Shown: positions 1 through 64,000 of the stretch, in pieces
How positions within the stretch are numbered: position 1 is the first letter of the stretch
Layout of the letters: every line of letters begins with the position of its first letter
Origin: Tubulanus polymorphus
Taxonomy: Eukaryota > Animalia > Nemertea
Reading direction: 5' to 3'
NCBI RefSeq assembly: GCF_964204645.1
Contig: NC_134034.1
Span: 4,624,914-4,688,913 of the forward strand
DNA: 64,000 nt
Notes under the pieces: generated by a model
Database searches by the model: none
What the model was told of the DNA's origin: nothing
Seen by the model: only the letters and a program-made list of their open reading frames with translations
Position numbers and translations under genes: made by a program

Positions 1-65
1 TGTTTTAATGTTTGTAAGTCATTTGTTATGTCATTTGTCTTGATTTTTAGTATGTACGCAACCGT

Positions 66-1131
66 ATTGACTGCTATTAATGGAAATCCACAGTTAAATT
101 GTACCATCTTCAGTTGATAAATCATAAACATAAACTGATGGTTTGTATATTTTAAATAAATCCTTAACTTCTTCTGTTTACTCATTTTCTACATGACTTA
201 AATTAAAACAATTTGGTTTAGATTTAATCAATCCAATATTCATATTAAAACCTAATGAATTGCATAATATATTCAATCCTGATATAGCAATATTTCCTTT
301 TTGAGCTAAAGATATCGTTTTGCGGTTTTTGAAACTTTTTGAACCATCTGCAGCATAGAACCCAATGAAGAACCATTTTCTTAAATTATTTTTTGCATTT
401 AATACATAATCTGGAACTATCTTTTCTTTTGTTGAAGTATTACTTTTCACTATTGCATGAATATAGAATTCATCATTATATTTTATTGCAAAATCTTTAG
501 GATTATTTACAAGTATTCTATAAACTGCTGATGATTTCATAACATCCATGATTCTAAATGTTTTATGTGAATAAACTTCTTCACAGAATTTCTTAATTCT
601 TTCTAATAATTTTAAGTCTTGATTGCATAAATACCAACAATATTTATTACCCAAATCATAATTATACACACCTGCTGAACCATCACCCATGAAAAATCCT
701 TTGATAAAATATTCTTTTTCTTCTAATGTTTCGGGTTCTATATTATAAATATTATTAATAATTTCATCAAATGACATATGATTCATTCTTTGGAAAGATC
801 TTTTATGTAATAATTCATCTCAAATTTTTATATCAGTTGGTTTTATTTCATCGCCATTTCGTTTAATGAAACTATGATCTTCTGTAACATCTACAAACCC
901 TAATTTAGTTCTAACTCTATAGATTTTCTTATTTGTTTTATGCCTAATAATATTCTTTAATTTTTTCCATCCATTTCTTGTCCAAACATCCATTAATCCA
1001 TTTATTTGTATTAATTCTTTTTCACCATATGAAATATAACATTCATTTTGTTTTGGAATTATATCTGAAATTCTTCTTACCAATACTTTATCATTACATT
1101 TTAATAATATTGGGGTGTCAGCTGTAACAGA
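66..1131 (-). mobile_element. Intein with LAGLIDADG homing endonuclease in pPolB motif C (pol-c site), decayed
   Basis: Starts immediately after YFD with block A SVTADTPILL (1131). Block B is VDVTEDHSF, followed by KPTDIKI*DELL. LAGLIDADG blocks are FIKGFFMGDGS and FFIGFYAADGS. Block F is YVYDLSTEDGT-FNCG and block G is LIAVN (Asn codon 68-66), followed by +1 Thr and the polymerase continuation. Length 1066 nt = 355 codons + 1 inserted base; two in-frame stops (820-822, 178-180). Confidence 0.93.
178..786 (-). CDS. LAGLIDADG (DOD) homing endonuclease domain of the intein, in frame with the upstream intein N-terminal part
   Basis: Two dodecapeptide motifs (YFIKGFFMGDGS, FFIGFYAADGS), block D-like KIVPDYVL and block H-like GLNILCNSLGFN. 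Same frame as ORF 820-1587, separated only by one TGA. Confidence 0.88.
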   Translation of the reverse strand: MNHMSFDEIINNIYNIEPETLEEKEYFIKGFFMGDGSAGVYNYDLGNKYCWYLCNQDLKLLERIKKFCEEVYSHKTFRIMDVMKSSAVYRILVNNPKDFAIKYNDEFYIHAIVKSNTSTKEKIVPDYVLNAKNNLRKWFFIGFYAADGSKSFKNRKTISLAQKGNIAISGLNILCNSLGFNMNIGLIKSKPNCFNLSHVENE

Positions 1132-4100
1132 ATCAAAATATGATATTTCAATATGCTTTTCCCCAAAAAGTGGTTGTAAAACATTATAATAAAAATCATA
1201 CATTAATAATTTTGATACTTCTAAAACAGTTGAACCAATGAATATAGGTTTATTAAATTTCATTGACGTTCTTTTTAATTTAACTGCGGTTAAATAATCT
1301 TCAAATCTTTTATTTCCTAAATGCCTAGGACTTGATTGTAGGTGTCTTAATCTTTCAGAATTATTTTCTAATTCAATATCATTTCTATTTCTAATATTTT
1401 CACATGTTTTACCACAAAAACTATTGTTCATTAATTTGAAGAAATCTTTTTCAAAATCCGTTTTTGATATGGTTCTCTGTTGAGTATTAAAATCTATATA
1501 TTTTTCTAACCACTTCGATTGATTAAATTCAATATATCTATGTACTTTCTTTAATTTCATTCCTTGTTTTAGATAAAATTTTAACATTCTATAATGAACA
1601 ATATAATTGTAGTATAAATAAGTATTAATTTTTCTGTAAAAACATGATTTTTCGGTTTTATTTTCTTCTGGTATTCACTTAAATAACTATCATCTACAGT
1701 TAAATGTTCTGGGCAATAAGGTAAGTTTCTTGTTTTAAACTTTATATTTTCAGGATATTCTAAATCAACTACAAAGAAATAACCAATTGGTGCTTCATCT
1801 TCTAAACTCATAATTGCGCTTTCCCAATTAGTTTTATCATCATTTTCAACTTCTGTTAATATAAAATTTTTATATGGTTGAGGTTGCATCATTGCCCAAC
1901 CATATAAATTATTGGCATCAATATATAATAATTTATATTCATCATTTGCTTTAAAATACCTCCCATAACACCACTCATTCCACCTCTAATTGATTTTTCA
2001 AATAATAAAACCATATCTGGTTCTTTTAATAAATCTAATTCTACATTTGTATATTTTAAACCACATTGCCAGGTTAAACCAGGACTAGAGTAGCAATAAC
2101 AAGGATCAACATTAAAATGATTCAAATTAACTTCTCTAAATTTTTCAAATATGTCAGCCAATATCATAACATCTGATTTTAAATATGAATCAACTAATTC
2201 ACCATGATTTTTCATCTTAAAATGGTTCCAAATATTTAATGTTCTATTAAACACTTCGTCTTTCACATACTCCTCTTTTAATTGATCATAAAATTGATCT
2301 TTTAATAATTCTGTTACATTAAAATCATTGTGTGTTTTATAAAATGAATAAGGAATTGCGCCTTTATATCTCAATAATTTAAAATCTTGGTCATTTGGAT
2401 AATAATATCGAGTTATAACAAAATCATTATCAACTAAACTTTTTGATAAATTATCTAATGAACTTGCTAGAAATCTATAAGAATCTAAAAATCTAATGCA
2501 ACCAAATTGAAATGAAATATAATTTTCAGATATTTTAGCTAATAGTTTAAAATCATATTTTCTTACATTTACACCATGCATAGCATTATATTCTTCTATT
2601 TCTTGATTAATTGAACCCAATTTTCCTGATAATTGTTTTATAGATAGATGGGTATCATAGCCTGATAAATTATGAAATAATATTGGTACGAAATTAACTT
2701 TCTTAGCTTGTAAATTACAATCTTCATGAGCAGCTCCACGATATTTTGAATTTAAATGATCATGATCTCTAACTTTTTTATCAAATGAATAAAAACGTTT
2801 TTCACAATAACAACAATGAGTTGCATAATTAAAATCAATTTCATTTTGATTTGTCATAACTATTCTTTTATTTTTGTTTAATAATTTTGCAAAATCACTT
2901 TCTAATTCAATCATTTTGTTACAAAAATCATTAACTACATCTTCACCTCTAAAAGAAATATATTGACTTTCATATAATTCAGGATAATTTGACTTTATAT
3001 AAATTCCATAAGCAGCAGCTCTTTGATGAACTTTTTTAATTGTATTTATAATTGGTGGGTCTTGTATTGTGTCTTCATTTAATTCATTTCCTTTATCCAT
3101 TGATTTTAAAAATTGCTTTTGTTATATATTTCTTTTCTATCTTGATCAGTTAATTCTTTATTCAACGATTCAAAATCCCCATAAATTACAAATGGAACAA
3201 TATTCTTAAATTTATGATTAGTAAATTTCAATTTATAATCTTTTTCTGTTGGCATTATTAATTTACAAAAATCTTTATTATCACATAATTCTTTATGTTT
3301 TAATAATGTATTCTCAGTCATAAATTTAGATAAACATTTTCTAAATAGATAAATTTTACGATGATGATCACTTTCTGTTCTAAAGAATAAAGCAATTTGT
3401 TTTAACCACATATAATGTTCATTTTCATCTTTTTTTGTAATATAACAAATCTATAGCATTTTCATCATCATAATATTCTGTTTAATATAAAGCTTCCAAT
3501 GTATAATCTTTGATATTTTCACCTTTTGTCTTTGGTAATTGCATTAATTCGAATACATTTATTTTTAAATTATTAACTTTTTCTATTTTAGAAATCATTT
3601 TTATAGTTACTGGATATTGATCAATTTTATATAATGTTTCATATTTCCGGTAATTTGTTATTCTAAAACTATGTGTAATATCTTCCTTTGGATGTAAGCA
3701 ACTAATAATTGCCCACAGAAAACATTTATTATCTTCATTTTGAACATTTATTACTGCTTTTGTTGTAAATGGTAATTTAATATAAGATGATCCTTTAATA
3801 TCCTCCTTCTCTGTTGTAAAGTTTGAATCATTTTTAAACATTTTATTACTTTTTGATGTTTTATTTCTTTTTGTATTATAAACATTTAAATCTAAAAATA
3901 TAATTTCATTTAATGATAAACCAGAACCCTCAAAATATCTTTCTTCAATATGACGTTTAAAGTCATTAAATATTTTTTCTAACTTCTCTTTTATTTGCGT
4001 TTTTGAAATTATTTCTTCAGAGAGTGTTTGAATATTATAATCTATTTTCTCTTCTGACTTTAAAAAACTTACTTTCCCAGAGATACTAATTTTTGGATAT

Positions 4101-4689
4101 TCAACATCTGTTATCAAATCTAGTATTTTTTCTATTATTTCATTAAATTTACTATAATCTTCTATGATTGTACCTTTAAAAAATCTAAATATAATAGCTG
4201 CAGGACAAATTTTACTACGTAATGTTTCTAATATTTCAATTGTATCTTTTATTTCTAGTGAATCAATATAATTTCTAACATTTTCCATGTAAGGTTTATT
4301 TGAAATGGATTTAGTTTTTGAAGTTGGTTTTTTTACTTTTTGAGGTTTATCATCGAAATAATCTTTTCCAAAAACATTACTACTCAAATTTTGATGGTGT
4401 TTTTGTGATTCGAGATGTCTATTATAATTCCTTTTTACTATAAATTCATTACAAACTTCACATTTTATTTCATCCACATTCATATTTTCTGATCGTTCTT
4501 TTCTTTCATTGGAATTTTCTGAAGTTTCAAAATCTATAACATTTTTTATATGATTTGAAGATTTTTCATGACGCGATTTTTGAGATTTATCAATGTATTT
4601 TTTACAATATGGACAATAATATTGATTTTCATTAACATCAATTTGTTCTGTTTTATTCTCTCCCATTTATAAGGAAAAAAAATTACTTG

Positions 4690-4955
4690 TGGTGATGAGT
4701 GGGGTAACTTCCCCTTGTATATAACAAGCACGCTATTAACCGTTCTCACCCAAGCCTCACAGCATCTATTTATCCGGGTACAGTTGACACGCAATCACTG
4801 TACTACAGTAATAGCACACGCGTTAATAACCGTTCTCAGTAGCACCTCGCTGTATCGATCTATCCACGCGCAGTTGTTGTTAAGCGCACTCACTGTATAT
4901 GTGTATCACAGAGCAATCGTCCGTTCTCACTAGAGCCTAGCTGTGATGAGTGGTG
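4690..4955. repeat. Degenerate subterminal direct repeats of Polinton copy A
   Basis: CCGTTCTCA recurs at ~4740, ~4830 and ~4921; CAGTTG at ~4781 and ~4870; GTGATGAGTGG at ~4692 and ~4944. GC is higher than in the flanking element DNA. Confidence 0.55.
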
Positions 4956-5529
4956 TCTCGACCTCTCGACCTCTGGTATGAAACCCACATCTTCCAATTA
5001 CTAGTAGGGACAGACCAAATAAGCTGAGCACCAAGTTTTCTTTCAGATGACTAAATTGCATTGCAGTATTATCAGCAATAAATGAAGACGAATACGAATT
5101 AATCATAGGGGTCCCATATAAACCAATGTTATGAATTCATTTGATTGTGCAAAATTACATCCTTGCATGAGCTCTCCACATTTCAGGAAACATACGAGAA
5201 TAAGAACAATAACAAAATCAATTAGAAAGAACACTATTCTTTTAATTGTAAACTTAACAGGTATCAATTAACAGCCTTTTAAAATCAGCCTTATTCCCAA
5301 TAAAAACTGTACAGCATAAGATAACAAAGATAAATGTATTTTAAAAATCAACAAATGCTTAGAATTACATCCAAGTTGCTGCTGCAAAAGGTAGGGATAA
5401 TAACTTTCTGCTAAATTGATGGTTGAACCGCTTTCACTTTTAATATAAAGAATCTTACCCAATCCGCGAAACAGCAAGGCTCACACAGCGAGAATAACAG
5501 TAAAAACTTTTTTTTTTCTTTGTCTCGCA

Positions 5530-39102: not shown

Positions 39103-40658
39103 TCACAAAACATAGCCAAATATTAGTCCGATATATAAAAATACATGGTTTATAAACTTTTGTCTTTGCCTAGTCCTTGTACCTCCTGGTTTCGTATACA
39201 CACTGGTGTAGGCTCTGTCAACATTTTCATTCCAGTGACAGACAGCTAAATTCGATCGCATTAGATATTGTTGGTCAGAGAACGATATGCGTTTATCTTG
39301 AAATAAGTTCATCACATTATTGAAGCTTTCCACATAAAAAGAATCTCTGCCCGAGACAAAACATTCAGGGTGTAAATACATATATGTCGACTTGATTAGC
39401 TTATTAAGAAGGTTTTCGGCAACAGGAGAGGTTATCACTACTCTTGATGGTTCATAATTTGCGTCAATTTTGCAACGAGATTGTGGATGACAGGAGTCGT
39501 GTTGATTTTTATAATGACAAATTATATTGTCCAAGTAGTCCAATAGTGTTTTTTCATTTTGGTTGCAATTTCGAACTGCCCATTGAATGTGCGTCCCAAT
39601 TGGTTGAGCCTTATCGTGTAGTTGTTCATGCCAGGTTTTTCCATGATGTTTTTTAGCACCTTTTCCTATTTTATCTAATTTTCTCACTATATTTTTTATC
39701 TCGTGCCAGGTATCGTTTTGGTTGATGGATCCCTGATCTCTAACAAACTTGTTGATCGTGGCACTGTTGTCATGACAGTGGATTCTAATTTCTAAGTCCT
39801 CGTTATCTTCAGTAGATCTCAGATATGAATATATCCGTTCGGTCCCAAGGCGTTCGTGTCGTTGGCTTACATCATCATCAGCCTTGGTGACATGTTCACA
39901 TCTGATAACTTTATGTGATTTTTCACCCACTGCCACAACGCTAGCCTCTTTAGCATTTTTTCGCCAGCCATGCCTTGCATCAGTCATGATGTCTATAGCG
40001 CCCGGCACTTCATAACATGCAATTTCTTCGAGTAGCGCCTGTCTTATACTGTTGTCCTGTTCTTCCTGGACACTCAGCTGGTAGAGGGATTGTAATTAAG
40101 CCAGCCTTTCGCGAGAGAGCTTCCCAATTCCACTACCGTCAACTAATCTGTGGTATGCACTAGCTATAATGCCGGATGAGAAGTACCCGTGAGCAATTCG
40201 GGCATTCACAAGAAATTCCCCATTTGGAAGGTATGATGACGATTTCCATACAAATGAATGAGCTTTCCTCTTCCAATTACAGTTCAAATGTACACGTGCG
40301 ACATGTCCATGGTAATAGACCTTCTTTACGGACACCTTACTTTCACAGAAATGACCACGTTTCCCGGCCATCTCAACCAACTTCGTCAGTGCGGATTCAC
40401 ATGTCACAAATATCTTCTGATTGACGCTACTTTTATCGGTGGACACATAATTAGTAACATTCATCTCGATAGTTTCTGGAGAATTTTTCGTCAACCAACA
40501 ATCCAGAAGATTCTCCATTATCACAGCATTGTTAATTGAAGTCATAGAACTTTTCATCAATGATTCCCGAACTTTTTTGATTTTCTGTAGAATTGACGTT
40601 TTAATACTTTCATCTCCAGGAATCTCAAAAAGGATAAGCGTTTACGTGTCGTGCTCAT
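39103..40658 (-). pseudogene. Kolobok DDE transposase (one in-frame stop at 40096-40098; 5' end frameshifted)
   Basis: ORFs 40096-40560 and 39103-40008 share a frame; MTDARHGW, IHCHDN, NDTWH, H..N.H..C, SFYVESFNN, A..HWNENV.R. Confidence 0.8.
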
Positions 40659-42970: not shown

Positions 42971-43576
42971 CGGAAGGATGTGTTATGATGTTTTCCTACC
43001 TCCGTTATTATCATTAGTCAATCAAATCAGCAATTCAACTTATAATGAAAAAAAAACAGCGGCCTAAAGCTCATAAAATAAAATCGACGGATTGCGTGAC
43101 CCTGAGTGATCTCAAGTAACCTAATTATCCGATGCACCTCGTAAGCTTTCCCCATTCGATTATCAACGCGCTGAAATAGTTTGCACGACGGGCACAGAAG
43201 AAGAAATGTAAGCGCTTGTATATATCCGACAAACATATTCTATATGCTATATTTTCCTTGAATTTCAAATACATATCCAACGATATGACAAATTGAATGT
43301 AGGCATATATAACTCAATTTAGACAATTATCTCAATGGCCGTGTTACACAAAATACGATAAAACTATTATGCGAATTCTCGACGAATCTAATTCAATAAT
43401 AACACATTATTGTATTCACAGAGAACACTGGATTGATTCAGTTATACTTTATAGCTGAGTATACCCAAGATACCATTATTCATCTGCTGTTCATCTACTT
43501 GAACGAAGCCTGTTAGATCAAAACTTTAACAGGAACAAGTCTTTCTTGTACACGAGTCATATACTACTAAACCAAA

Positions 43577-44596
43577 ATGGACGATATGGTAAACGCATCG
43601 ACAGACGTGTATTGTCCACCAATAAAAACTAGTTACAAGTTCGTTCACTACCTGTTTGTATGCGGAATAGGAGTAATTTGCATATGCGGTACGGCTGGTA
43701 ATGTTCTCAATATAATCGTGATCAGCCTCGACAAACAAACGTTGATATCACTCAAAATACTGCAGGCATTAGCGTGTTGCGATTTGGCGTTTTTGAGCAT
43801 TTGTTTCGTATTCTTCTTTGTCAGGCATACTCTACACAGGATCCGATTCGGGGATTTGGTTTTTAGGTACGGGGACTTGAAAATCGGTGCACGAGAAGCC
43901 TACCACTCAGTCGTATTCTTTTTTATCATGCAACAAACCAGGAACTGGATAACCGCTTTTATCTCAGTGTTTCGTTTTCTGAATATTAAATTCCCGTTCT
44001 GGTCCAAACGAGTTTTGACGTGGAAATTTTGCAAAGTTAGTATCCTTTTCATGTTTATAATTTCTATCGCTTGTTACGTTCCTCGTTATGTGCTCCTGAA
44101 GATCGGTTACGAAATTCTTTACGATTGTTTGTTGAATGAAGTAACACCGGTATTAATAAAGGTTGCCCCGGTTGCATTCACACATTATGATGCGACGATA
44201 TATTTTGGATTCCTTGTCGGGCTTCCGATGCTAATTCTCTACACTACTAATCTCAGCTTGCTCGGCTCTGTTTATTCCGCTCGTTCGCGGCGTTCGGAAT
44301 TTCTGGCAAGCTCTCGGCCATTGAAAGTCAGCCGTAGTGAACGGCAAGCCGATAAAATGGTGACGATGATTTTACTGATTTTTACACTTTGTGAAACGCC
44401 CGCTTGCATCGACCGAGTTGCAAATTTAGCAGGTTTTAGATTTAAATCGGACGATTTCAAACAATATACGAGGAAAACTGGACTCTTTTTGGTTGTCCTC
44501 GATTCAGCCTTGAATTTTCTGGTTTATTTGTTGATGAATTCTAAATTCAGACAAAATATTAAAAGGCTTCTTGGGCGCGTGTTTCTATGTCCTTAG
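43577..44596 (+). CDS. Intronless rhodopsin-class GPCR (FMRFamide-receptor-like)
   Basis: GN in TM1, LACCD in TM2, ISVFRF...FPF, CETP in TM6, DSALNFLVY..NSKFR in TM7/helix 8. Confidence 0.9.
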   Translation: MDDMVNASTDVYCPPIKTSYKFVHYLFVCGIGVICICGTAGNVLNIIVISLDKQTLISLKILQALACCDLAFLSICFVFFFVRHTLHRIRFGDLVFRYGDLKIGAREAYHSVVFFFIMQQTRNWITAFISVFRFLNIKFPFWSKRVLTWKFCKVSILFMFIISIACYVPRYVLLKIGYEILYDCLLNEVTPVLIKVAPVAFTHYDATIYFGFLVGLPMLILYTTNLSLLGSVYSARSRRSEFLASSRPLKVSRSERQADKMVTMILLIFTLCETPACIDRVANLAGFRFKSDDFKQYTRKTGLFLVVLDSALNFLVYLLMNSKFRQNIKRLLGRVFLCP

Positions 44597-46940: not shown

Positions 46941-48048
46941 AGTAATAGGGTAAGTGTCTTTTCATACCAGAGGTCGAAAGGTCGAGCTCATAAAAAATAT
47001 ATTCTCACACGCTCGAATTTCACTCAACCTTTCAACCTCTGATATGAAACAGCACACCCTATGACTCTAATAATATTCATATATATGAACATGGATATTA
47101 TATTAATGAAATCACTTTTAATAAAAAATATGTATAATAAATGGAGAATAAACAAATATACTCAGAATTCCCAGCTAGAATTAAAGATACTACAAATGTC
47201 AAATCTGTAGATTATACATTCAAAAAGTTAACAGAATTCACATAACATGAGAAATATTTAACAAATATTGTAACAATTACTAATAGATATGGTAATAAAT
47301 TAGTTATTCACTTAGAATATGAAGGATAAAAAGGAAATAGTTATAAATTTAGAACATATTTACCTGATAAATTTCATAGATTATCTATGAAGATCTAGAA
47401 GAAGTGTGTTCTGGTGATTTATATTTCATATATAAGGGTAAGGATAAAAAAGGATGTCATGATATTGATTTCGAATAATATAAAAAGATATGTAAATAAA
47501 TGGTAGAATTAAAAGAATATAGAATATTTGTTGATTCAAGAAGACTTACAAATTATAAATCTCATAATTCATTGATACAACTAGATAGAGAATTCAGAAA
47601 TTGTGTTGATTTAAATTAGTAAATTTTAGTTTATGTAACTCATTTTACAATATATCGTATAAAACTATTGAACATAGAGCCTTTTGAATTTTTGATAAAA
47701 ATTAAAACGAATGGTTCTATATATATTTAAAACCAGGGTTATATAATTTAGATACATTATCACAACAAATTAATAGAAAAGCCTGGCACAAATTAGGTAG
47801 TGATTCCGGGTTTAATATTAGTTTTTAAAAAAGTGATAGTTCTGATAAAATAAAGATAAGGTTATCTCATAGTGAAAAACATAAATTTATGGCAAAAAAC
47901 CTATAGCTAAACTGTTAGGAATTCCTACAAATCTTTTACAAATATTGATGCTACACCAAACTTAATACCTTACACACATTATTATATCTATTGCAATTTA
48001 ATTGATCCTACAAAAACATTTGAAGCAACTAAAGATACAACTTGTAAT
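46941..48048 (+). mobile_element. Polinton copy C: internally deleted derivative (terminal palindrome joined directly to small-ORF and penton region, no pPolB)
   Basis: Terminus AGTAATAGGG...TTCATACCAGAGGTCGAAAGGTCGAG; palindrome 46941-47066; ~47110-48048 aligns to copy B ~55830-56781. Cut by the ISL2EU insertion. Confidence 0.85.
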
Positions 48049-48203: not shown

Positions 48204-51098
48204 ATGTCTGAGCAGCGAGCCATTGCATCAATGACTATCAAAGATCTTCAAGACGAGCTTCGGTCATACGGAGCAAAGATTTCAGGTCGAAAACAAAAGC
48301 TTTGTGAGAGGTCAATATAAACGGACGGTCTTGTTCTTTTACTTCCGGGTTCGAAGATTTTTTTTTGCTTTCGTTTCTTAATGAAGTAGCAATAACACAA
48401 GTGCGTTGAAATTGATTTTGTCCCTTTTCAATCAGAGACTTCTTGCGAATTGAGAGATGAATTTATCTGATGGATGAATAAATCTAGCTTCTAGAACATC
48501 CTGGTCCTAGATTAAACTCAATTCAATGGCAATGCAATTTTATTTCGTAAATCTATGTAATTTATTGAAATATTGGCCCTTACCGAGAGTACAGATAACA
48601 CAATATCGGGTGGTTTTATGCTTTTTTGACAAATACCACATGCCAGACCTGTAGAACAAGGCCATTGTCCCATGAACTTCAGTCACAGCAATTTTACTGA
48701 TACTTGAATTCCTTAAATATATATATATATTCATGAATATGAATATATATTCATATATTACTTCAGAATTCTTTGTGACAATATTTATATATTACTTCAG
48801 AATTCTTTGTGACAATTGAGTGATATATGCTACAGTTATACGGTTTCTGTTTTTCAGGTTATAATTTTATAGAACGAATAAGGTCAACATCACTATAGAG
48901 TCGGAGTACAGCATGGAACTTCCAGACCAGAAATTCTACAAGGATTTACAAGCAGAAATGTATGCAATGGTGCCAAAAGTGATTATGGAGAGGATAAATG
49001 AATACTTAAAACAATATGATACGGTATTTGATGGGAAAATTAAAGATTTATATGAGCAGAGGTAGGTAGGCTTTGCTTACATTTTCTAAATGTAGCCTTA
49101 CATACTAATGTCTATTTCAACCTGATTTGTGAGCATTCCGGGTGGCCTAGCTCGCTAATTTTTTGTAGTACATACCTGATAAAGGTCTTAATAGGACCAG
49201 AGGGGACTGGCAGTCGACCTAAATTATCATTTTTTAATCCATTTGAAACTGTATTGAAGGATATCCAAAAAGTCTTCACTGAAAGGGGTAAATCAAGAGA
49301 AGTGACTCTTCATGATTTGAAAGTTTATCAATATGTTTCCGTGCCTACGCACCAAACTTCAGTTGGTAGGCATGGAGACATATTGTTAAACCATGAAGGC
49401 TTTATTCTCTCAGGAACCCCTCTCAATGCAGCCTTTTTGGATATCCTTCAATACAGTCTTAAGTGGATTAAAAAGGTATGTACTACTGAAACTGACTGAG
49501 CTAGGCCACCCGGAATGCTCTCAAGTCAGGGTGAAATATAAATAAGTAAGTCAACATTGTGTCAGGAAATTTTCTATATGAAACATGGTTATTTCTTATA
49601 ATTTTTTAGATTTCTCCGCTTTTTGCGAATATCCTCATCAAAAAGCGCGTCATCAGTTTATTTGACTTCAGTTATGTGGGCTGAAATGAAGAAATCCGTT
49701 TCGTACAAGGTAGACGTAGTGATTGATAATTGTGGCGTAGTTGTTGAGGTCCAGTGTGAATGCGGAGCCGGTCAGGGCCCGAACGCTCATTGCAAGCATG
49801 TGACAACAGTTCCATATGCTGCATACAAATTTAAAGAGGAAAAGAAAATTATAACAGAAGTGACATGCACCCAGGTAAATATGAGGTTTTTTGCATTCTT
49901 TGTTGGTAACATGTTGCATTTAATTGACAAGCATAATTATCTTCTATTTTTCATTCAGACTCCAGAGATTTCATCGTACGAAACCCCATTTAGGAAGTCC
50001 CGTCAAACTTACTAGTCATAATAAGCTAATGCAACCTATTTCACCTACTAAGAGTATGAACTTCGATCCAAGGAAATCTATGTACAGAAATCGTCAATTA
50101 TGTGAGACAAATTTTAGGAACATGTGTATGAATTATCAGGTATAAAAAATATATTTTGAAAAATTAACTCTATCAGCATTATTTCATGTTATTAAATAAT
50201 CTGATTCTTGTAGGCCATCCATGGAGGTACTATGCCAGTTATGCGTCTTATTCCACCGGTCAATCCTCATGCGTTGTACCTAGACCATGATTATTTGAAA
50301 TTAAACCATGTGGACAAGTTCCTGGCTGATGAAAAGGTGAATGTTTGTGATTCAAGCCTTATGAATTCATGGGTATTAACAAAAACTGGTTATTATCATT
50401 TGCTGTTCTTTTTCAGTTGACTACGATTACAGATGAGGAAATCAAATTAATAGAATTGAATACCAGAGGTCAAACTTCGAACGTCACCTGGAAACGAGAG
50501 AGAGAAATGCGGATAACGGCATCAAAATTTGGAACGATCGCTAAAGCCACAGAAAGGAGAAATAAATTGAAGTTGGCGCAAGAATTAGTAACGGACATTG
50601 CGTTAAAAACTAAGGCCGTACTCCACGGCCAAAAATATGAGAAGGTTGCTGTGGAAAAGTATCATAGTAGAACAGGATCTATAACGAATGAGTGTGGATT
50701 ATTTGTCAGCAAAGATCACCCTGTTTTAGCGGCTTCCCCTGATCGCGTTGGTAATGATACTTTAATTTTGGAAGTCAAATGCCCTTTTTCCGCGAAAGAT
50801 AAAGAAATCAACCCACAAACTGTTCCGTACTTGGAGTGGGACGTTAACAGAAACCTGCAACTTAGAATAAACCATGACTATTTTTTATCAAATACAAGGA
50901 CAGTTATATTGTTCAGGTCGTACAGAGTGTGATATTGTGGTATTTACACTGGAAGACATTAAAATAATTCATATTAAATTTGACTCCGATTTCATTAAAG
51001 CAATGGTAGAAAATTTAATGAAATTTCATTCAGAATTCCACAAAGATACAGTTTTAAATAACTTCTTGTACAGATACTATTATGATTATTCTTTCTAA
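48204..51098 (+). pseudogene. SAP-SWIM-YqaJ (lambda exonuclease-like) accessory gene of ISL2EU, multi-exon
   Basis: Exon 1 (48204-48310) is SAP-like, MTIKDLQDELRSYGAKISGRKQKLCER; SWIM CECGAG..HCKHV; YqaJ RITASKFG, HGQKYE, CGLFV, ASPD, EVKCP, YQIQGQL (frameshift near 50880). Confidence 0.85.
49113..49538. mobile_element. MITE in an intron of the YqaJ gene
   Basis: ~40-bp TIRs TATTTCA.CCTGA.TTG.GAGCATTCCGGGTGGCCTAGCTC and its reverse complement at 49498-49538. Confidence 0.75.
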
Positions 51099-51134: not shown

Positions 51135-51316
51135 TTAAGCATTTCTTGAAACGATACATTCTCTAAAGTTACACAGGTAGCAACAGACTGTCATAATTTC
51201 TGTAGGCAGGGGTATTTCATTATTACTCAATGGATGTGTGAGTATTTTGTATGTTTTGGCTAGTCCTATAAGTCGTTCGATGTGCACTCTTTTGCTGGCA
51301 ATTTTCCTGTCACATT
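51135..51316 (-). pseudogene. C-terminus of ISL2EU DDE transposase, truncated by Polinton copy B
   Basis: CDRKIASKRVHIERLIGLAKTYKIL...VCCYLCNFRECIV* (RVHIER carries the catalytic Glu). Not in the ORF track. Confidence 0.8.
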
Positions 51317-51322
51317 AGTAGT

Positions 51323-51716
51323 AGTAATAGGGGTTTAGTTGTTTCAAGCCAAAGGTCGAACGGTCGAGTTCATTAAAAACAAAACATTAAAAGTAATTTA
51401 GAACTATAATATATTTTCATAACCGTGTACATTTTATATTAAAACTAAATATTTATTCTAAGATATCAATAATTTTAAAAGCATATTGTATTAAATCAAT
51501 TGGTCGCTCCACTTCGCTACCGCTCCGCTCCGCGACCAATTGATTTATTTACAATACACACATTCATATAATCAAATATATTCAAATAATAATAATATTC
51601 AACTGAAATACACACGGTTATGAAAATATATTATAGTTTTAAATTACTTTTAATATTTGTTATTAATGAACTCGACCATTCAACCTTTAACCTGAAACAA
51701 CTAAACCCCTATTACT
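51323..51716. repeat. 394-bp imperfect terminal palindrome of copy B
   Basis: AGTAATAGGGGTTTAGTTGTTTCA...CTATAATATATTTTCATAACCGTGT...AAATCAATTGGTCGC / GCGACCAATTGATTT...ACACGGTTATGAAAATATATTATAG...TGAAACAACTAAACCCCTATTACT; centre ~51519. Confidence 0.92.
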
Positions 51717-51797
51717 CTTAAATTATTCATATATATGAATAAAATATAAATGAATAACTTCTAAAATCAATTTAAAAAAAAAAATTTTAGTATTAAA

Positions 51798-54700
51798 ATG
51801 GAAGCAAATAAGTACTATCAATATAGATAAATCCCAAAAAGCAAGACACAATAAAACTAAAACACATTTAGAGAATAAATTGAAACTAGAATATAAAGAT
51901 GATATATTAGAAACTAAATTAGAAGAATTAAAGAATGAAAAAGAAACATATAAATGTGATACATGTAATCAATCATTCAGTGATAAAAGATATTATAATG
52001 AACATTTAAAATCTAAAAGTCATATTAGAAATAAGAATAATGATATTTTAGGTGAAGATTATTTTGATGAAGATAATGATAAGAAACAGAAGACAATTAA
52101 AAACATAAAAAATAAATTAAACAATAAAAGACCATACATGGAAGATGTAAGAAATTATATTAATTCATTAGATAATAAAAAAGATATAGAGATAACCGAA
52201 GCATTTAAAAGTGATATTGGCCCAGCAGCTATCGAGTTTAAATTTCATAAAGGAAAAACATTAGATGAAAATAAAAAACATTTAGAAAATATAAGAAATA
52301 AAGAAATAATAAAGATAATAACTGATGTTGAATACCCTAAAATTAGTATATCAGTTAAAGTAAAGTTTATAAAGTCTGAAGATAAACCAATATATAATAT
52401 AAATTCTCATTCACAACATATCTTATATAAACAACATATAGATGATAAATTAGATAAATGTTATAATGAAGTAAAAACTAAAATAGAAGAGAAATATTTT
52501 GAAGGATCTGGTTTAATATTTGATGAAATAATATTTATGACTTTACATGTTTATAACACAAAATATAATAAGTTAACTAAATCAATACCAATAGATGAAA
52601 ATAATGTATCATATTATAAAGAACCAGATATTGAAGCATCGAGTTATATTAAACTACCATTTAAAACTAATGCTGTAATAAATGTACAAAATGTTGATGA
52701 TAAATGTTTTCTATGGGCTATAATAAGTTGTTTACACCCAGTTGAAGATTATAAACAACATAGTTTTAGATTAACTCATTATAAACCATTTGAAAATAAT
52801 TATAAGATAGATAAGTATCCTGTTATAATTAAAAACGTCCCAAAAATAGAAAGAGATAATAATCTAAAAAATAAATGTATTTGATTTAATCAAATTACCA
52901 AATACAAAAGGTAACAATATAAAACATTATACATTAGAACCTTTATACCTATCAAAAGATTAGGATTCAAACGATGTTATAGATATACTATATTATGAGA
53001 ATCATTATATGTGGATTAAAAGAATTGATTTATTTTTTAAATCAGAAAATGATTTTGATAATAAAATATATCTATGTAGAAAATGTATAACTAAATTCAG
53101 AACTGAAAGTGCATTATTAAATCATAAACAATTATGTGAAAATCATGATTATTGTAAATTAGTTTTACCAAATGAAAAGGATAAAATATTAGAATTCAAA
53201 AAATATGATTATAAAAATAAAGTACCATTTGTAACATATGGAGATTTGGAATCATTAAATAAAGAATTAACTGATCAAGATAGAAAAGAAATATATTATA
53301 AAAGAAAGAAATTAAATTCTAATGAAAATGATTTTTCATATGAACCACCAAAAACAAATACTATTAAAAAGATTCATCAGTCAGCTGCTGCTTTCGGGTT
53401 ATATATAAAATCTGATTATCCAGAACTAATTGAAAGTGAATATTATGATTATAGAAATGAAAATGTTATCAATCATTTTTGTGACTTATTCATTGAATAT
53501 GAAATAAGATTTAGTATATTATTGAATACAAATATAGAAATTATAATGACAGAAGAAGATAAAGAAGAATTTGCGTTTGCAGATAAATGTTATTATTGTG
53601 AAAAGATATTTAATTATAAAGATAAAAAAGTAAGAGACCATGATCATTTGAACGGAAAGTTTAGAGGCGCTGCACATGAGAATTGTAACTTACAAGCTAA
53701 GAAAATTAATTTTGTACCAGTTATATTTCATAATCTATCAGGATATGATGCACATTTATTCATCAAACAGTTATGCCATAAAATAGAAGAAATTAATAAT
53801 GAAATAGAAAGATTAAATTAAAATAGGTCAAAAGATAAAATACCAAATAATAAATTTAGAATGTTAGCTAAAACTTCTGAGAATTATATATCGTTCCAAT
53901 TTGGTTGCCTAAGATTTATAGATTCATATAGATTTTTAAATAGTTCATTAGATAACTTATCAAAATCATTAGTTGATGATGAATTAAAAATATTAAAGCA
54001 ACACTACCCAAATAATGATGATTTTCAATTAATGAGATATAAAGGCGCAATTCCATATTCATTTTATAAATCACATAATGATTTCAAAATAACTGAATTA
54101 TTAAAAGAACAATTCTATGATGAATTAAAAAATGAATATGTTAAAGATGAAATCTATAATAGAACATTGAATATTTGGAATCATTTTGGAATGAAAAATC
54201 ATGGACAATTAGTAGATTTATATTTAAAATCAGATGTATTATTATTAACCGATATATTCGAAAGGTTTAGAGATGTAAACCTAAAATATTTTAATATTGA
54301 TCCTTGTCATTGTTATTCATCACCAGGTTTAACATGGGATTGTGGATTAAAATTTACAGATATAAAAATGGATTTGTTAACAAATATATATCAATTACTA
54401 TTATTTGAAAAATCTATAAGAGGAGGAGTTTCAGGTGTATTAGGTGATAGATATTTCAATGTAAATGATAACCCTGGATATAAGTTATTATATATAGATG
54501 CAAATAATCTATATGGTTGGGCAATGATGGAACCACAACCTTATGGAGTATTTGAATTAACTGAAGTTTTACAGAATGAAAATAATGATAAATTTGATTG
54601 GAAGAAAAGAATCCTAGATATTGCAGATGATTCAGATACTGGTTACTTTTTTGTTGTAGATTTAGAATATCCTGAAGATAAAAAATTTAAATCTAGAAAT

Positions 54701-55831
54701 CTAGCATACTGTCCCGAACATAAAACTGTAACTCATGAAGAACTATCAAATTATCAAAAAAGAATTAAACCCGAAAATCATATTCATACAGAAAAGTTAA
54801 AAGTAACTCAAGAAGATAAATATAATTATGTAGTGCATTATAGAATGTTAAAGTTTTATCTAAAACAAGGGATGGTTCTAAAAAAAGTACATAGATATAT
54901 TTCATTTAGTCAATCTAAGTGGTTAGAAAAATATATAGATTTTAACACCAAACAGAGAACTGAAGCTAAAACTGATTTCGAGAAAGATTTCTTCAAGTTA
55001 ATGAATAATGCATTCTATGGTAAGACTTGTGAAAATATTAGAAATAGAAATGATATTGAGTTAGTCAGTAATGGTAAAAGAATTGGACATTTACAATCAT
55101 ATCCTAAGTTTTTAGGTAACAGAATATTTGATGAAAATTTAGCTGCAGTTGAAATGAGAAGAACATCAATGAAATTTAATAAACCAATCTATGTTGGCGC
55201 TTCAGTTTTAGAAATATCAAAATTACTAATGTATGAATTCTATTATAATGTATTACAACCACTTTTTGGAGAAAAACATATAGAAATACTATATTTTGAT
55301 ACAGATTCTTACATATTAAAGATAAAAACTGATAACATAACAGATGATTTAAAAATATTAAAACATCATTTTGATTTTAGTAACTATCCTAAAGATCATG
55401 AATTGTTTAGCAATGATAATAAAAAAGTTCCTGGTAAATTCAAAGATGAATTAGGCGGTGAAGAAATGATTGAATTCATTGCTATTAGATCTAAAATGTA
55501 TTCATATAAAACTAAAGAACATGAAGCTAAAAAGTTAAAAGGAATAACCAAAAGTGTAGTAGAAAAGAATATTCTTTTCAAAGATTACATCAATTGTATA
55601 TTCAATGAAGAAGTTAGAAAACATAAAATGAGATGTTTAAGATCTGAAGATCATGAAATGTTTATTGAAGAAATTGAAAAGATAAGTCTAAACCCATTTG
55701 ATGATAAAAGATATATTTTAGATGATGGAATTCATACAGTTGCTTATGGATGTAATTTAGATGAATACTTAAAATTTAAAAGAGAAGAAACAAAAGTAAA
55801 CGAGATAATGAAAAGAATTCTAACGTGTTAA
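51798..55831 (+). pseudogene. polB: Intein-free protein-primed DNA polymerase B with zinc fingers and endonuclease VII-like domain (small 5' deletion, +1 frameshift at ~52870, TAA at 53819)
   Basis: ORFs 51880-52884, 53009-53821 and 53861-55831: TYGDLES, RDHDH..RGAAH..CNL, HNLSGYD, YLKSDV, YIDANNLYG (motif A), KLMNNAFYGK (B), YFDTDS (C), PGKFKDE, RSKMY, KGI, DDKR. Confidence 0.95.
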
Positions 55832-55927
55832 TCAAATTTTAATAAAAATATGTTATTAAAATGGAGAGTAAACAAGCGCACAGTGAGAACAACAAATCAT
55901 TTCTAGATAGAATAAAAGATACTTCAA

Positions 55928-56209
55928 ATGTCAATAGATTATAAATTCAAAAAGTTAACAGAATTAACAATCCATAAGAAATATCTAATTACAGATATTG
56001 TTACAGTTACTAATAACTATGGAGATAAATTAGTTATACACTTAGAATATGAAGGATTAAAAGGAAATACATATAAATTCAGAACATATTTACCAGATAG
56101 ATTTCATAGATTATCAAGTGAAGACTTAGAAGAATTATGTTCTGGAGATTTCTATTTCGTATACAAAGGTAAGAATGAAAAGGGGCACCATGAAATAGAT
56201 TTCGAATAA
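55928..56209 (+). CDS. Small conserved Polinton protein (possible OB-fold ssDNA-binding protein); homolog in copy C ~47200-47478
   Basis: Open 93-aa ORF conserved between copies (FKKLTE..Y.I..YG.KLVIHLEYEG..FRTYLPD.F..Y.G). The fold is inferred only. Confidence 0.6.
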   Translation: MSIDYKFKKLTELTIHKKYLITDIVTVTNNYGDKLVIHLEYEGLKGNTYKFRTYLPDRFHRLSSEDLEELCSGDFYFVYKGKNEKGHHEIDFE

Positions 56210-56226
56210 GAAAATATGTAAAATAA

Positions 56227-56985
56227 ATGGTGGAATTAAAAGAATACAGAATATTTGTTGATTCAAGAAAACTTACTAATTATAAATCTCATAATTTATT
56301 AGTACAATTAGATAGAGAATATAAAAATTGCGTAAATTTAAAATTAGTTAATATAAGTTTATGTAATTCTTTTTACAATATATCGAATAAAACTATTGAA
56401 CATAATACTTTTTTAATTCATATCAGAAATATAAATAAATGGTTTCATCTATTTTTAAAACCAGGATTATATAATTTAGAAACATTAGCACAAGAAATTA
56501 ACAGAAGAGCACGGTTGAAAATTAGAAAAGATGATAAATTTTTAATATGATTTATAAAAAGTGATAGCACAAATAAAATTAAAATAAAGGTATATGATGA
56601 AAGTCAACATGCATTTATAGTAAAAAAACCATTAGCTAAATTGCTAGGAATTGCACCAGATGTTGTTACAGTAAACGTAGAAGGCATTTCAAATATAATA
56701 CCTTTTACGCACTTTTATATTTATTGCAATTTAATTGATCCTACAAAAACATTTGAAGCAACTAAAGATACAATTTGTAATTCTAGTATATTAAATATTT
56801 TACCATTAAAGAATGTTAAACAATTTGGAACTCAAATAAATTATAATTTAACAGAATGTGATTTCAAACCTTGCATTCCTCAATTTAATAATTTTAAATT
56901 AGAAATAAGAAATCATAATGGATATTTAATTGATTTGAATAACTTTCCTGTGATATATGAATTAGTTATAAGATGTAGAGAGTAA
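56227..56985 (+). pseudogene. Minor capsid (penton-like single jelly-roll) protein, one in-frame TGA at 56548-56550
   Basis: ORFs 56227-56550 and 56641-56985 share a frame with no other stop; IFVDSR, NSFYNI, PGLYN..L, LLGI, YIYCNLI, ILNILPL..FG, LEIRN..LIDLNN. Confidence 0.75.
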
Positions 56986-57001
56986 TTTTTTCATTATATA
57001 A

Positions 57002-57358
57002 ATGAATATAACTGTTGGACCGAGTATATGTTTTGGGTTTGATTTTAAACGTGAGAAAGAAATGAAATTTAACGTTAATGATGTAATTACACATATTAAA
57101 AATATTGCATTTTCTAATGAAACAACATTTGAGTATGAAACAACAATAGATAAAGAAACTTTAAATGTAGAAAAGATTACTAATTTAATTAGAGAATCTT
57201 TAAGATTTTATGAATTAGATGAAGATTTCATTATTGATGATATTAAAAGAATAATAACTGAAATATATGAAAATGAAACTAATAATACCATAAATGTTGA
57301 AATAATTATAACTAAGATAAATGAATATTTTGAAGATAGTAATTTTTTTGATAAATAA
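57002..57358 (+). CDS. Hypothetical acidic protein of copy B
   Basis: Open 118-aa ORF tightly packed between neighbours, with the element's TAAATG start context. Confidence 0.55.
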   Translation: MNITVGPSICFGFDFKREKEMKFNVNDVITHIKNIAFSNETTFEYETTIDKETLNVEKITNLIRESLRFYELDEDFIIDDIKRIITEIYENETNNTINVEIIITKINEYFEDSNFFDK

Positions 57359-57580
57359 ATGAGTGATAATAAGTGGATGATAACTGGATTATATAATGGA
57401 GCATTACTATCAGTTGGAACTGTTGGTTATTCAATGGAATTAAAAAAAGTATTTAAAATGGGAAGTGTTAATGTTGATAGATTTGATATAAATGATATTT
57501 TAAAGTTAACATTAGCAGTTACTTTATCTAATTTAACTATTGATTATTTGGAAAAACAAAAATATATTCCTCCCATATAA
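57359..57580 (+). CDS. Small hydrophobic Polinton protein
   Basis: 73 aa with two hydrophobic segments and a DYLEKQKYIP end; abuts the previous stop. Confidence 0.65.
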   Translation: MSDNKWMITGLYNGALLSVGTVGYSMELKKVFKMGSVNVDRFDINDILKLTLAVTLSNLTIDYLEKQKYIPPI

Positions 57581-57604
57581 ATGCATAATTATTTTGCTAA
57601 ATAA

Positions 57605-57855
57605 ATGGCTTCTGCAATTATAACTATTATAGGATCGGCATTTGTTAACGCTTTGGCATTTACTGGTGGTGGTAATTTATTTAAGCATATTGATAAAAAT
57701 AGTTCATTAGGGAAACAAAGAAGACATAACTTATCGTTAGAAAAATATAATAAAGCAGCAGAAGAATATAGAGAAAAGAGACAAAATTATATGGATTATA
57801 TTAATAAGGAATTATATAATTAGAACATTTCACACCGAGATTTTCAATCAGTCGA
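57605..57855 (+). CDS. Small Polinton protein with a Gly/Ala-rich hydrophobic N-terminus plus coiled coil (premature TAG at 57821-57823 likely)
   Basis: MASAIITIIGSAFVNALAFTGG..LF...RRHN..LEKY...EKRQ..DYIN resembles a recurrent small gene of invertebrate Polintons (recognised from memory). Confidence 0.6.
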
Positions 57856-58970: not shown

Positions 58971-59558
58971 CAATCAATTATTAAGATTGGACCATAAACA
59001 GTTTTTTCATCAGATGATTATAATTTATTTACGCATTATAAAGATTTATGGTTAACAAAAGAAAATAGAAATAATATGATATTTCAAGGCATCCAATCAG
59101 AAAACCAAAATAAATTAAGATCTGAAGCACATAATGCAGTAGTAACTAATGACGTAGATAATTTAATAAAAAAGATTTATGGAAGCAAATATAAAATTCC
59201 ATTAGACTTTGAATTGATCAATAATAATGCACCTTTATTAAAATATGCAATACAAGAAGATATTATATTCGAAATAACATTTGCTCCTGTTAATGAAATT
59301 GTATTATCTAGCGTTGTCAAAGATATGGATTACCAAATATATGTTTAGAATATGACACAGTAACTGATGGAAATATTGCTAACACAAACTAAAATACAAT
59401 CAAAATACAATAACACAAAACACAAAATACAATCAAGGATTTTAATTATCATATGATTATATTGATAAATAAAAAACTTTAACTATTAATGCACATGATG
59501 AAATAATTAATGAGAATATTAACTTCCCAAGAAAATATATTAAAGGTATATTAATACT
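58971..59558 (+). pseudogene. Major capsid protein (double jelly-roll) fragment of copy B
   Basis: DDYNLFTHYKDLWLTKENRNNMIFQGIQSEN..KLRS...YGSKYKIPLDF...P......I.FEITFAP...CLEYDTVTD...NINFPRK.IKGILIL resembles invertebrate Polinton MCPs. Same composition as copy B. Confidence 0.7.
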
Positions 59559-59739
59559 TCTACCATTGCGACATATTCTAAACTAGCTGTGAGATCACAT
59601 GCATAACCTATATACACCATACAACAAAGGTCATGCCACACCTAACCTGCACCTGAAGTCGTGTGTAACATTTGGCATACATCATCACCATCTAACGTGA
59701 TCAGTGTAAACTGTGTGTAAACCATGCTCATTTGTTGTA

Positions 59740-60263: not shown

Positions 60264-61346
60264 TCAATTCTGCCAATTGCCGTACGAGCAACATGGTAAT
60301 TTACGAAGTTCTCTTCTTATTTCAGCACCCGTCGCGATGTAAAGAAAAAAGTTAATGCCGTAATTAGCAACGTAAACCAAGACAAACAAATCACTGAGAA
60401 CCTTTACATACGGTATATTCGATTTATATACTTCTGTACTTTGCATTATCCAATGAGGCGCGCATAGCAATAAAAACGAGAATGTTACAACTAAAGTCAT
60501 TAGAATAATAACTCTATTTGTTTTCGTCCCTTTTTTCTCCGCTTGTTCACTTCTACGACCAGTAAATTTTCTAAACCGAAGAACAACGAGCAAAAGCATG
60601 TTAACTATCAGGATGATAGTCGCCGGTACGTAAAATATCGTGAAAGAATAAGCAAGTGTCAATATGCCACTCAGATACTCATAATTCATCAAAACACATA
60701 GATTTTGAGATGGCGAGAACCTTACACTAAAGAACTGTATAAACCCAGAAGGCATACAACCCAACGTTGTTAATAATGCTATGATTCTGGCGGTTTTTAC
60801 TTTGTTTAAACGTCTAGTTAAAAATGGATAAGACACACAAGCGAGGCGCTCGATAGATACCACAGCAATAAACCAAGAAGACATATTCTGAAAAACGTGC
60901 ATTGCATAATTCATTACTATACAAGCGGCCGTCGAGCGAAATTTGACGATGATGTTAAAGCCCATACATTTAAACAAGAAGTTCACCCAAAATATAAGTC
61001 TACCGACAAGCACAAACGAATCAGTTATAGCGAGAACAGAAAAATACACTGAATACGTTCGGCTACGCAGTTTTATTTGCATCATTAATAATGTCATTAT
61101 ATTTCCGAGAAGCCCAACGAATACAATGAGAGGTAAAACGACTAATGTAAACCAGTACTGCGTTGGTCTCATATCGCCAACACTGGTCGTAAATCTATTT
61201 TCGATTTCTGCCGTCCAGTAAGCGAAATCATAGTACGTAATATTTTCCATTGATACGCAGTTACGCAGCTTTGATATGTTTCCACGCAGACTTATGTTAC
61301 AACAATTCTCGCATTTAGACCATGTCGTATCATTTATATCATTCAC
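60264..61346 (-). CDS. Intronless rhodopsin-class GPCR (FMRFamide-receptor-like)
   Basis: GLLGN, LAITDS, VSIERL.CVSYPF, CAP in TM6, NYGINFFLY...EIRREL..CC. The start codon is uncertain (GTG in the track). Confidence 0.9.
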   Translation of the reverse strand: MNDINDTTWSKCENCCNISLRGNISKLRNCVSMENITYYDFAYWTAEIENRFTTSVGDMRPTQYWFTLVVLPLIVFVGLLGNIMTLLMMQIKLRSRTYSVYFSVLAITDSFVLVGRLIFWVNFLFKCMGFNIIVKFRSTAACIVMNYAMHVFQNMSSWFIAVVSIERLACVSYPFLTRRLNKVKTARIIALLTTLGCMPSGFIQFFSVRFSPSQNLCVLMNYEYLSGILTLAYSFTIFYVPATIILIVNMLLLVVLRFRKFTGRRSEQAEKKGTKTNRVIILMTLVVTFSFLLLCAPHWIMQSTEVYKSNIPYVKVLSDLFVLVYVANYGINFFLYIATGAEIRRELRKLPCCSYGNWQN

Positions 61347-62639
61347 CCACCTTTCCTATTCAGTGTAAAAAAATCAATCAAGCCTTTTGTTAATCTTAAT
61401 TTTTTATTATGAATGCTGATCGCAAGAGAGGAGAAAATTGATGAATGCCTTGAATAGAATCGTTTTAGTGAGAGGAAAATATCAGGTACAAAATAATCGA
61501 CTTACGTGTGCATAGCCAGCATGAGCATGAAGCTTTTCTAATGTCTTCAAATTAATTCCCAGGTCATGGGAATAGCTGTAAAACAACTAGCAATACCAAC
61601 AAGTAAAACGCCAAAATTCGAATTATCGGTTTTACAGAGACTTATGTAACGCACTTCCTGATGGTATTGGCAACGTGCGTGCGTGTGAACGAACTGAAAT
61701 TATAACGAACTAAAAATAAAATACAATATATACTGTTAATCAAGACGTGACAGATGATTATATAGCAATGATATGTTACTACGAACCAAACCTAACCGAT
61801 TATCACCCAAGTTTTACCAATTCCAATTATATTATGAACCAAATACCAACTCAAAAATTAACAATACTAGTTACAAAATATGAACTTTTATAGGTGCATT
61901 GTTTTCTGAATAATCTTATCTAACAACTTTGGTTGAAAGATAATCAACAGAGTCCAAATAACAAATCGCGCTGTCGTACTCCAACACCTCGCTCCTCGAA
62001 TAATTACGAAAACATCAAGATTCTGTTCTAATCACCAACGCCAGAAAAATACACGGATTTAGTATGACAAATCAATAGTCTCTGGTAGTAGAAGACAAAT
62101 CACAACGATCACGAATCAGCCTTTAGGTGAATCATATTTCACACATCATTCCTCCGCAATAATGATGAACGCGAAATTCCAATCACTACTCCGAGCGTAA
62201 TAAAATCTGTACACATGGCAAATACAATGTATCTACACAAAGTCGTAGAAATCGCGGTTTAAATCTTACGAAACTGCTAGTTGCTCTGAAATTCTGCTTT
62301 ATACACTTCTGGTACGTATGCAATCCAACTAGCAATTACTTCTCTACTGTATAATGATGAAAGTACTATATCCAACAATCCAGCTTCACGGATGTGAATA
62401 AAATCCGTTAAATAATCCATGACGGATCAAATTAAACTTGATAAAACAGCGATAAAATAACTATTCATTCTTTGACAGGGAAAAACTAAAATTAACAGAG
62501 CTGTGTGGCAACCCGTGATACTATTGAAACCAAATCAAATCTGGCTCACCGAAACGGCTCAACCCCAGTATCCGGTTAAGTAGTCACAAGACTTTTCAAC
62601 GATAAACGAATTGCTACGCGGTGCAGTAAGTCAAAAATA

Positions 62640-63897: not shown

Positions 63898-64000
63898 GGT
63901 AATAGGGGTTTAGTTGTTTCATACCAAAGGTCGAACGGTCGAGTGAGTAAAAAATAAAAAATAAATTCTCGCACACTCGAATTTATGTTTTATTTTTTAC
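63898..64000 (+). mobile_element. Polinton copy D left terminus with terminal palindrome, continuing beyond the window
   Basis: GTAATAGGGGTTTAGTTGTTTCATACCAAAGGTCGAACGGTCGAG, then GTAAAAAATAAAAAATAAATTC-TCGCACACTC-GAATTTATGTTTTATTTTTTAC (hairpin centre like copy C). Confidence 0.85.

Follow-up and report, generated by a model that had tools for sequence, protein, structure and literature searches.

Two genes for a protein-primed DNA polymerase (pPolB) lie in the 64,000-nucleotide stretch of Tubulanus polymorphus DNA analysed here (the window). One of them, in copy A of a Polinton-like element, is interrupted by an intein at a site that is empty in the other, in copy B. An earlier note on this DNA took the two copies for both alleles of one homing system. 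The locus raises the question of whether they are donor and target of such a system, and how an intein persists in this kind of host. The elements correspond to low-GC stretches at 1-5000 and 51300-57800, and their features are collected in Table 1. The terminal motif AGTAAT..GG...GGTCGA..GGTCGAG opens copies A, B, C and D alike; the claim that both elements have terminal motifs in common was thus borne out, and two more fragments carry the same motif.

Table 1. Positions of the element copies, polymerase genes and intein in the window.
Feature	Position	Strand	Remarks
Copy A pPolB	1..4666	-	PF03175, 37.9 bits; several stops and frameshifts; runs off window start
Intein, Hint and two-motif LAGLIDADG endonuclease	66..1131	-	in motif C of copy A pPolB; 1,066 bp
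LAGLIDADG endonuclease domain	196..726	-	residues about 136-312; motifs GFFMGDG and GFYAADG
Copy A left terminus	4950..5002	-	AGTAAT...GGTCGA..GGTCGAG motif
Copy C	46941..48048	+	common terminus joined to genes downstream of pPolB; polymerase deleted
Copy B left terminus	51317..51716	+	starts AGTAGTAG; 400-bp inverted repeat
Copy B pPolB, intein-free	51754..55831	+	PF03175, 49 bits; frameshift near 52900, stop 53819-53821
Empty intein site, copy B	55286..55321	+	junction 55300/55301, YFD|TDS
Short downstream genes of copy B	55842..57823	+	element truncated near 57830
Copy B probable minor capsid (penton) gene	56227..56985	+	split by stop
Double-jelly-roll major capsid gene remnant	58998..59560	+	ESM Atlas top matches Capsid_N / DJR-like, 0.95-0.96; recognition below threshold, lead only
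Copy D	63898..64000	+	further left terminus; runs off window end

The junctions of copy A read ...ATATCATATTTTGAT|insert 1131..66|ACGGTTGCGTACATACTAAAA, which gives YFD|S...N|TVA in the protein. With X at its two stops, the insert scored 30.7 bits against the intein N-terminal model TIGR01445 (cutoff 24.5) and 28.4 bits against PF14528 (LAGLIDADG_3, cutoff 22.5). Its score against PF14890 was 29.8, below the cutoff of 35.8; the intein of the relative P0003 was above this cutoff. An AlphaFold model of the copy A intein had a pLDDT of 93, and its top Foldseek matches were TliVMA, PI-PkoII, PhoVMA, PI-PfuI and PI-SceI. The insertion lies at a conserved site and is absent from homologs; it is in frame in the intact relatives P0002-P0006 and frameshifted in copy A. 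Judged from its sequence and predicted fold, the insert carries the marks of a class 1 intein, namely the site, the splicing residues, the Hint fold and two LAGLIDADG motifs. The earlier claim of a LAGLIDADG intein inside the copy A polymerase is thus confirmed. The intein is broken by stops at about 820 and 178 and by a net frameshift towards the C-terminus (1,066 bp = 3n+1), motif C of copy A is TVA, and the polymerase has further breaks outside the intein. Because of the two intein stops, the frameshift and the TVA motif C, copy A cannot be active. Both polymerases also contain a weak match to PF02945 (Endonuclease VII-like), with 24.8 bits in B (about 53550-53695), above cutoff, and 17.1 bits in A (about 2710-2855, minus strand); the same match is precomputed for many pPolB relatives of B.

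The site in copy B reads ...ATACTATATTTTGAT|ACAGATTCTTACATATTAAAG at 55300/55301, so that the uninterrupted site and its interrupted counterpart in copy A, as first described, were found base for base. Self-BLASTN aligned B 51985-55300 with A 4435-1132 at 73.4% over 3,367 columns (E=0), and a second segment, B 55299-55365 with A 67-1, at 77.6% (E 3e-7). The alignment stops exactly at B 55300 / A 1132 and restarts at B 55301 / A 65; 50 of the 65 bases downstream of the site are identical. The match on either side of the insertion site is far beyond chance. The earlier statement that the two polymerases align closely along their length is to be qualified by an identity of 73% at both the nucleotide and the amino acid level. 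Copies A and B belong to different, broken families that are 73% identical. Three intein-free environmental pPolBs are 81-85% identical to B in amino acids and, with a fourth, are closer to it than A is (73%); in the polymerase trees, A is sister to the group of B and these environmental sequences at 71-73%. Raised identity near the site, looked for as a sign of homing between A and B, was absent: the last 150 nt before it had an identity of 0.83, and three others of the 24 alignment windows had 0.82-0.85. Synonymous differences were found in 6 of 23 codons adjoining the site and in 31 of 106 in a far block (p=1.0), with no conversion tract. With exteins only 73% identical and no local excess of identity, A and B do not stand as two alleles of one homing system. 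They are decayed members of two families without sign of having exchanged the intein.

Read depth in the host was obtained from raw reads of run X5, which carries the same species label (1,934 Mb read, 80% likeness). The intein had a depth of 196-249 at seven positions (mean 227-fold), and extein positions common to A-type and B-type reads had a mean of 530. Where B-type reads fall off, extein depth was 239, 241 and 156, at three positions picked after the table was seen. These depths suggest that the intein is fixed in A-type copies and missing from B-type copies, and they fit a host in which roughly half of the copies are A-type with the intein and half are B-type without it. The strongest loose read ends look, by eye, like copy B. 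Assuming a genome of 0.3-2 Gb, and with no single-copy control, the depth corresponds to about 35-235 intein copies. At the three intein breaks of copy A, 235 of 247, 164 of 166 and 98 of 120 reads (82-99%) are unlike copy A, and the breaks are therefore private to it. No read joint skipping the intein was seen among 15 of the 24 joints listed, a count made uninformative by a right flank of only 65 bases. Spread of the intein from A-type to B-type elements is not visible in the depth, although the B site is intact. At several positions at 300-1100 and at about 1616 of the window, the reads of this run split about 70:30, which suggests that the intein-bearing A-type elements of the host fall into two subfamilies.

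The wider family of this intein was examined with protein searches. There were 285 long matches. Of the 120 listed, the six best include five pPolBs with an intein at D|S...N|TDS (46-59% identity), and nearly all others are giant-virus-type PolBs (28-41%). A search at 189-604 aa gave 30 matches, and additional pPolB fragments sharing this junction are among the 19 best (43-72%). A profile-free search of 50% representatives added P0160 and P0165 among the best 150 of 1,960; the other top matches examined there were giant-virus-type PolBs. For the intein tree, 84 inteins were extracted from 153 proteins and 8 near-duplicates were dropped, which left 76 rows for a quick tree with a midpoint root. 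The seven pPolB rows formed one clade (SH-aLRT 99), joined at support 91 to 14 PolB inteins and nested among giant-virus PolB inteins. This nesting suggests that the intein was captured from a giant virus via the common motif C, a direction that we infer. The residues S1, T83, H86 and D337 are present in all six pPolB intein lineages, as are both catalytic LAGLIDADG aspartates. The terminal Asn and the Thr at +1 are also present in pPolB inteins; the penultimate His is found only in P0003/P0004 and is replaced by Lys, Ser or Val in the others. Conservation is 0.50 in the endonuclease domain and 0.53 in the N-terminal splicing domain. An endonuclease as conserved as the splicing domain, with its aspartates kept, argues for selection on cutting.

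Viral and metagenome contigs scanned with the intein yielded 136 loci, none of which matched either pPolB probe (tblastn, E<=1e-8). A search of viral contigs with P0002 gave no match, and one with the copy B polymerase gave three loci, with no intein match and no downstream gene in common with B or C. Related inteins also occur outside pPolB. P0411, P0424 and P0415 are near free-standing intein ORFs, flanked by an N-extein of 11 residues and a C-extein of 4-7 residues; this free-standing intein is 90% identical to that of P0004. The 55 members of the P0411 cluster are found on contigs 19-825 kb long. By its sequence, this form looks like an intein that has multiplied outside pPolB, in a copy of its target site. 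A related intein in an ADP-ribosylglycohydrolase (P0020) lies at GGD|TDT, and those in type II topoisomerases (P0092, P0106, P0111, P0112 and P0121) lie at xD|TDG, both sites mimicking motif C.

The distribution of the intein on the polymerase tree was then considered. Among the best 120 of 4,924 pPolB relatives of B, 118 were new; 117 of these have the site without an intein, and in one the site is missing. On a 135-row FastTree, intein-bearing polymerases occupy eight places. In a 25-row subset, chosen by hand to include the nearest intein-free neighbours and with P0005 left out, seven changes were needed, six of them forced by starred branches, and a single clade of intein-bearing polymerases was rejected (AU p=4e-54). 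The patchy presence on the extein tree that had been named as a check of homing was thus found. For most pairs, intein and extein values run parallel (0.59/0.58, 0.66/0.66, 0.49/0.46), and this parallel divergence also fits long vertical descent. P0005 is a clear exception, with an intein 46-49% identical to the others and an extein only 24-33% identical, which points to a probable jump of the intein to a pPolB far removed from the others. In these lineages the intein appears to be of long standing, maintained by transfer between close relatives, while jumps over long distances are rare. P0364 from a lacewing was rejected as an intein carrier, since in this gene model pPolB is duplicated and the site is missing.

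In two families, the clusters of P0003 and P0006, copies with and without the intein reach about 99% identity. The 90% cluster of P0003 has 136 members, of which 40 were read and 15 listed, on contigs of 57 kb to 1 Mb. The 15 listed comprise seven copies with the intein, six without it and two that are short of the site. Compared with an intein-bearing copy, all six empty copies differ at 4-5 of 10 residues before the site, at 4 of 10 after it and at 4-11 more up to +50. Further upstream, five of them differ at only 2-10 of 745-1,031 aligned residues and the sixth at 45. None of the six has the TDS motif C. Over the 13 residues that follow the site, the intein-bearing copies agree with distant polymerases of the TDS type or with an intein at 11-13 positions, and with their own sisters at 8-9. 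This pattern could mean either that the intein arrived with its flanks or that the surviving empty copies acquired a resistant tract. The empty copies have at least three flank haplotypes resembling other lineages, which shows recombination. In the P0006 cluster, 15 listed of 121 comprise five copies with the intein, one without it and nine short of the site; the lone empty copy has identical flanks, with no differences in 169 C-extein residues. Long contigs with many copies suggest that both clusters may lie on eukaryotic chromosomes.

An altered motif C (CDS, TDA or TDG) was found in 38 of 46 intein-free rows of the P0003/P0004/P0060/P0067 clade, the one most heavily invaded by the intein, and in 2 of 77 rows elsewhere, after two rows with CGS and TGS had been dropped before the tree. 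The rows are related, and the Fisher test on these states (p=2e-21) was therefore not used as evidence; the excess of altered motifs is that of a single clade, whose hosts may be few. On the polymerase tree the different states are mixed with one another. As a lead, CDS, TDA and TDG are possible escape alleles. P0160 carries the intein before TDA, so TDA alone does not block it.

Taken from sequence comparison, the most probable account is that a giant-virus-type intein, predicted to be self-splicing, sits in motif C of the polymerases of Polintons integrated in an animal genome and likely persists by homing into close intein-free Polintons, with A and B showing no sign of an exchange; we hold this with fair confidence. 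The intein would have been captured from a giant-virus PolB through the common YxD|TDS motif. Splicing would restore the polymerase via Ser1, the block-B Thr/His, the block-F Asp, the terminal Asn and Thr+1, residues that have these roles in the class 1 splicing mechanism. Close relatives may meet in one cell while they replicate together or as integrated copies; the endonuclease would then cut the one with the empty site, and the intein would be copied into it by repair. Spread would be mostly within lineages with rare long jumps, and the CDS, TDA and TDG variants may escape cutting. The homing idea of the earlier note is accordingly kept for Polinton polymerases outside the window, where it is well supported by patchiness, the pairs of about 99% identity, the differences at the site and P0005, but not for A and B.

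That A-type and B-type elements are nevertheless two alleles of a working homing system, with the B site as its current target, is highly improbable. In its favour, B has an intact site, with the same base as A at 13 of 15 positions before it and 15 of 21 after it, 92% of the last 25 residues before it are the same, and both types are abundant in the reads. However, over those residues A also agrees with B's outside relatives at 84-88%, overall identity is 73%, the last 150 nt are equalled by three other alignment windows, the synonymous sites show no excess of identity, and the depth makes more than a few B-type copies with the intein unlikely. A single ancient acquisition, followed by vertical descent in Polinton lineages and repeated loss with an endonuclease that no longer drives spread, would account for the one clade of pPolB inteins, for the parallel intein and extein identities of most pairs and for the split between A-type and B-type elements in this host. 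It is unlikely, since it requires many precise losses (117 of the 118 new matches among the best 120 of 4,924 are cleanly intein-free), leaves P0005 unexplained, and predicts that an endonuclease no longer in use would have eroded more quickly than the splicing domain, which is not seen.

Ordinary recombination of co-resident Polintons could also produce copies with and without the intein, with no role for the endonuclease and with the motif-C variants as neutral features of a clade. The flank haplotypes of the empty P0003 copies and the limitation of the variant enrichment to one clade agree with this, but the residues that differ cluster around the insertion site, with very few along the roughly 1,000 residues upstream, and the catalytic residues are conserved; we regard it as quite unlikely. 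In the other direction, homing may be taken further than in our preferred account. Animal germlines would then harbour inteins, tens to hundreds of Polinton-borne copies each, as an active gene drive among viral copies that remodels the otherwise fixed motif C (DTDS to DCDS, DTDA and DTDG) into escape alleles and has given rise to a multicopy extra-polymerase form with 11- and 4-7-residue exteins. This wider claim is possible but somewhat doubtful. The existence of a family of homing-type inteins in the polymerases of Polintons, and thereby in the chromosomes of animals, is well supported by the sequences.

The intein is of a known kind in a new kind of host. The inteins at YGD|TDS in motif C of giant-virus (Nucleocytoviricota) PolBs, 28-41% identical to that of copy A, have the same site, the same Ser1...Asn|Thr ends and the same Hint and LAGLIDADG domains, whereas the host protein here is the protein-primed polymerase (PF03175) of a small integrating element. 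In the available text of Green et al. 2018 on DdDP inteins, viral inteins are listed for four giant-virus families plus unclassified viruses (PMC5784728). Gallot-Lavallee et al. 2023 described, in the text accessible to us, inteins in endogenized giant-virus polymerases and in Chloropicon and Anaeramoeba nuclear polymerases (PMC10710043). Those cases are similar in that virus-borne polymerase inteins lie on nuclear scaffolds, with homing between paralogs there, and the Chloropicon Pol delta intein matches that of copy A at 30%; their hosts in that text are algae and protists, as against an animal in the present case, where the intein is carried by a multicopy Polinton family polymorphic for its presence. 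The archaeal and yeast homing inteins PI-PkoII, PI-PfuI, TliVMA and PI-SceI have the same two-domain fold (Foldseek E 1e-14 to 8e-10), but only 10-17% identity and cellular hosts.

HNH and VSR insertions in Polinton pPolB2 have been reported in the available texts of Jeong et al. 2023 (PMC10748475) and Krupovic et al. 2024 (PMC11071308), and the latter suggested that endonuclease insertions in Polinton polymerases result from intein invasions. There too an endonuclease lies inside a Polinton polymerase, but no Hint or LAGLIDADG domain is described (the text available for PMC10748475 has no mention of either), whereas the copy A insert is a complete intein in the catalytic motif. We found no Polinton polymerase with a Hint-domain intein described in the full-text literature as far as available, including PMC3671162, PMC12220804, 10.64898/2026.10.13.758929, PMC11131425, PMC5718144 and PMC8502044; survey supplements, Repbase and subscription papers might hold one. 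A 2019 paper called the absence of inteins from metazoan genomes, in the portion available, "a puzzle yet to be explained" (PMC6805012). The present locus holds a homing-type intein of complete architecture in animal nuclear DNA, as passenger of a Polinton, copy A itself being broken. It gives concrete form to the guess of intein invasion expressed in the available text of PMC11071308, and would record DNA-level contact between giant viruses and Polintons. With families in which intein-bearing and empty copies are about 99% identical, homing, co-conversion and the escape of target sites can be tested directly in a multicopy element of eukaryotes.

We use the label Polinton because of the polymerase (PF03175), the termini and the capsid-like remnants. 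Polintons are marked by terminal inverted repeats starting with AG(T) and by a target-site duplication. The left termini of the four copies begin AGTA or GGTA, with no right end in the window to pair with them. For the probable penton gene of copy B, the nearest named ESM Atlas cluster was Sputnik minor capsid V18/19 (0.93), a lead only, with recognition below threshold and no Pfam match; none of the six ORFs in the downstream stretch of copy B had a Pfam match. Retroviral-type integrase, packaging ATPase and protease were absent from 29 scanned ORFs of the 44 listed, all four copies being truncated or off-window. Copy C matches 55837-56781 of copy B at 78.7% over 962 columns and is an internally deleted derivative, with its terminus fused straight to the genes that follow pPolB. 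A second, inverted terminal motif is present in the left ends of B (400 bp apart) and C (46941-47075, about 130 bp apart), and these motif pairs are possibly a hairpin end or fold-back.

Elsewhere in the window, three single-exon ORFs (23080-24039, 43571-44596 and 60264-61355) matched rhodopsin-class (class A) GPCRs above the Pfam cutoff, and for one GPCR ORF all 15 of 15 PDB matches were mammalian-type GPCR structures; these genes mark the window as nuclear DNA of an animal. An LRR ORF of the host lies at 18354-19037. A YqaJ-like exonuclease ORF (50351-50932) and a Mutator-like ORF (39103-40641), the latter with a below-cutoff match to an ADP-ribosyltransferase domain, are probably transposon remnants. 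A long inverted repeat at 26047-27808 has arms of 584 bp with 94.7% identity.
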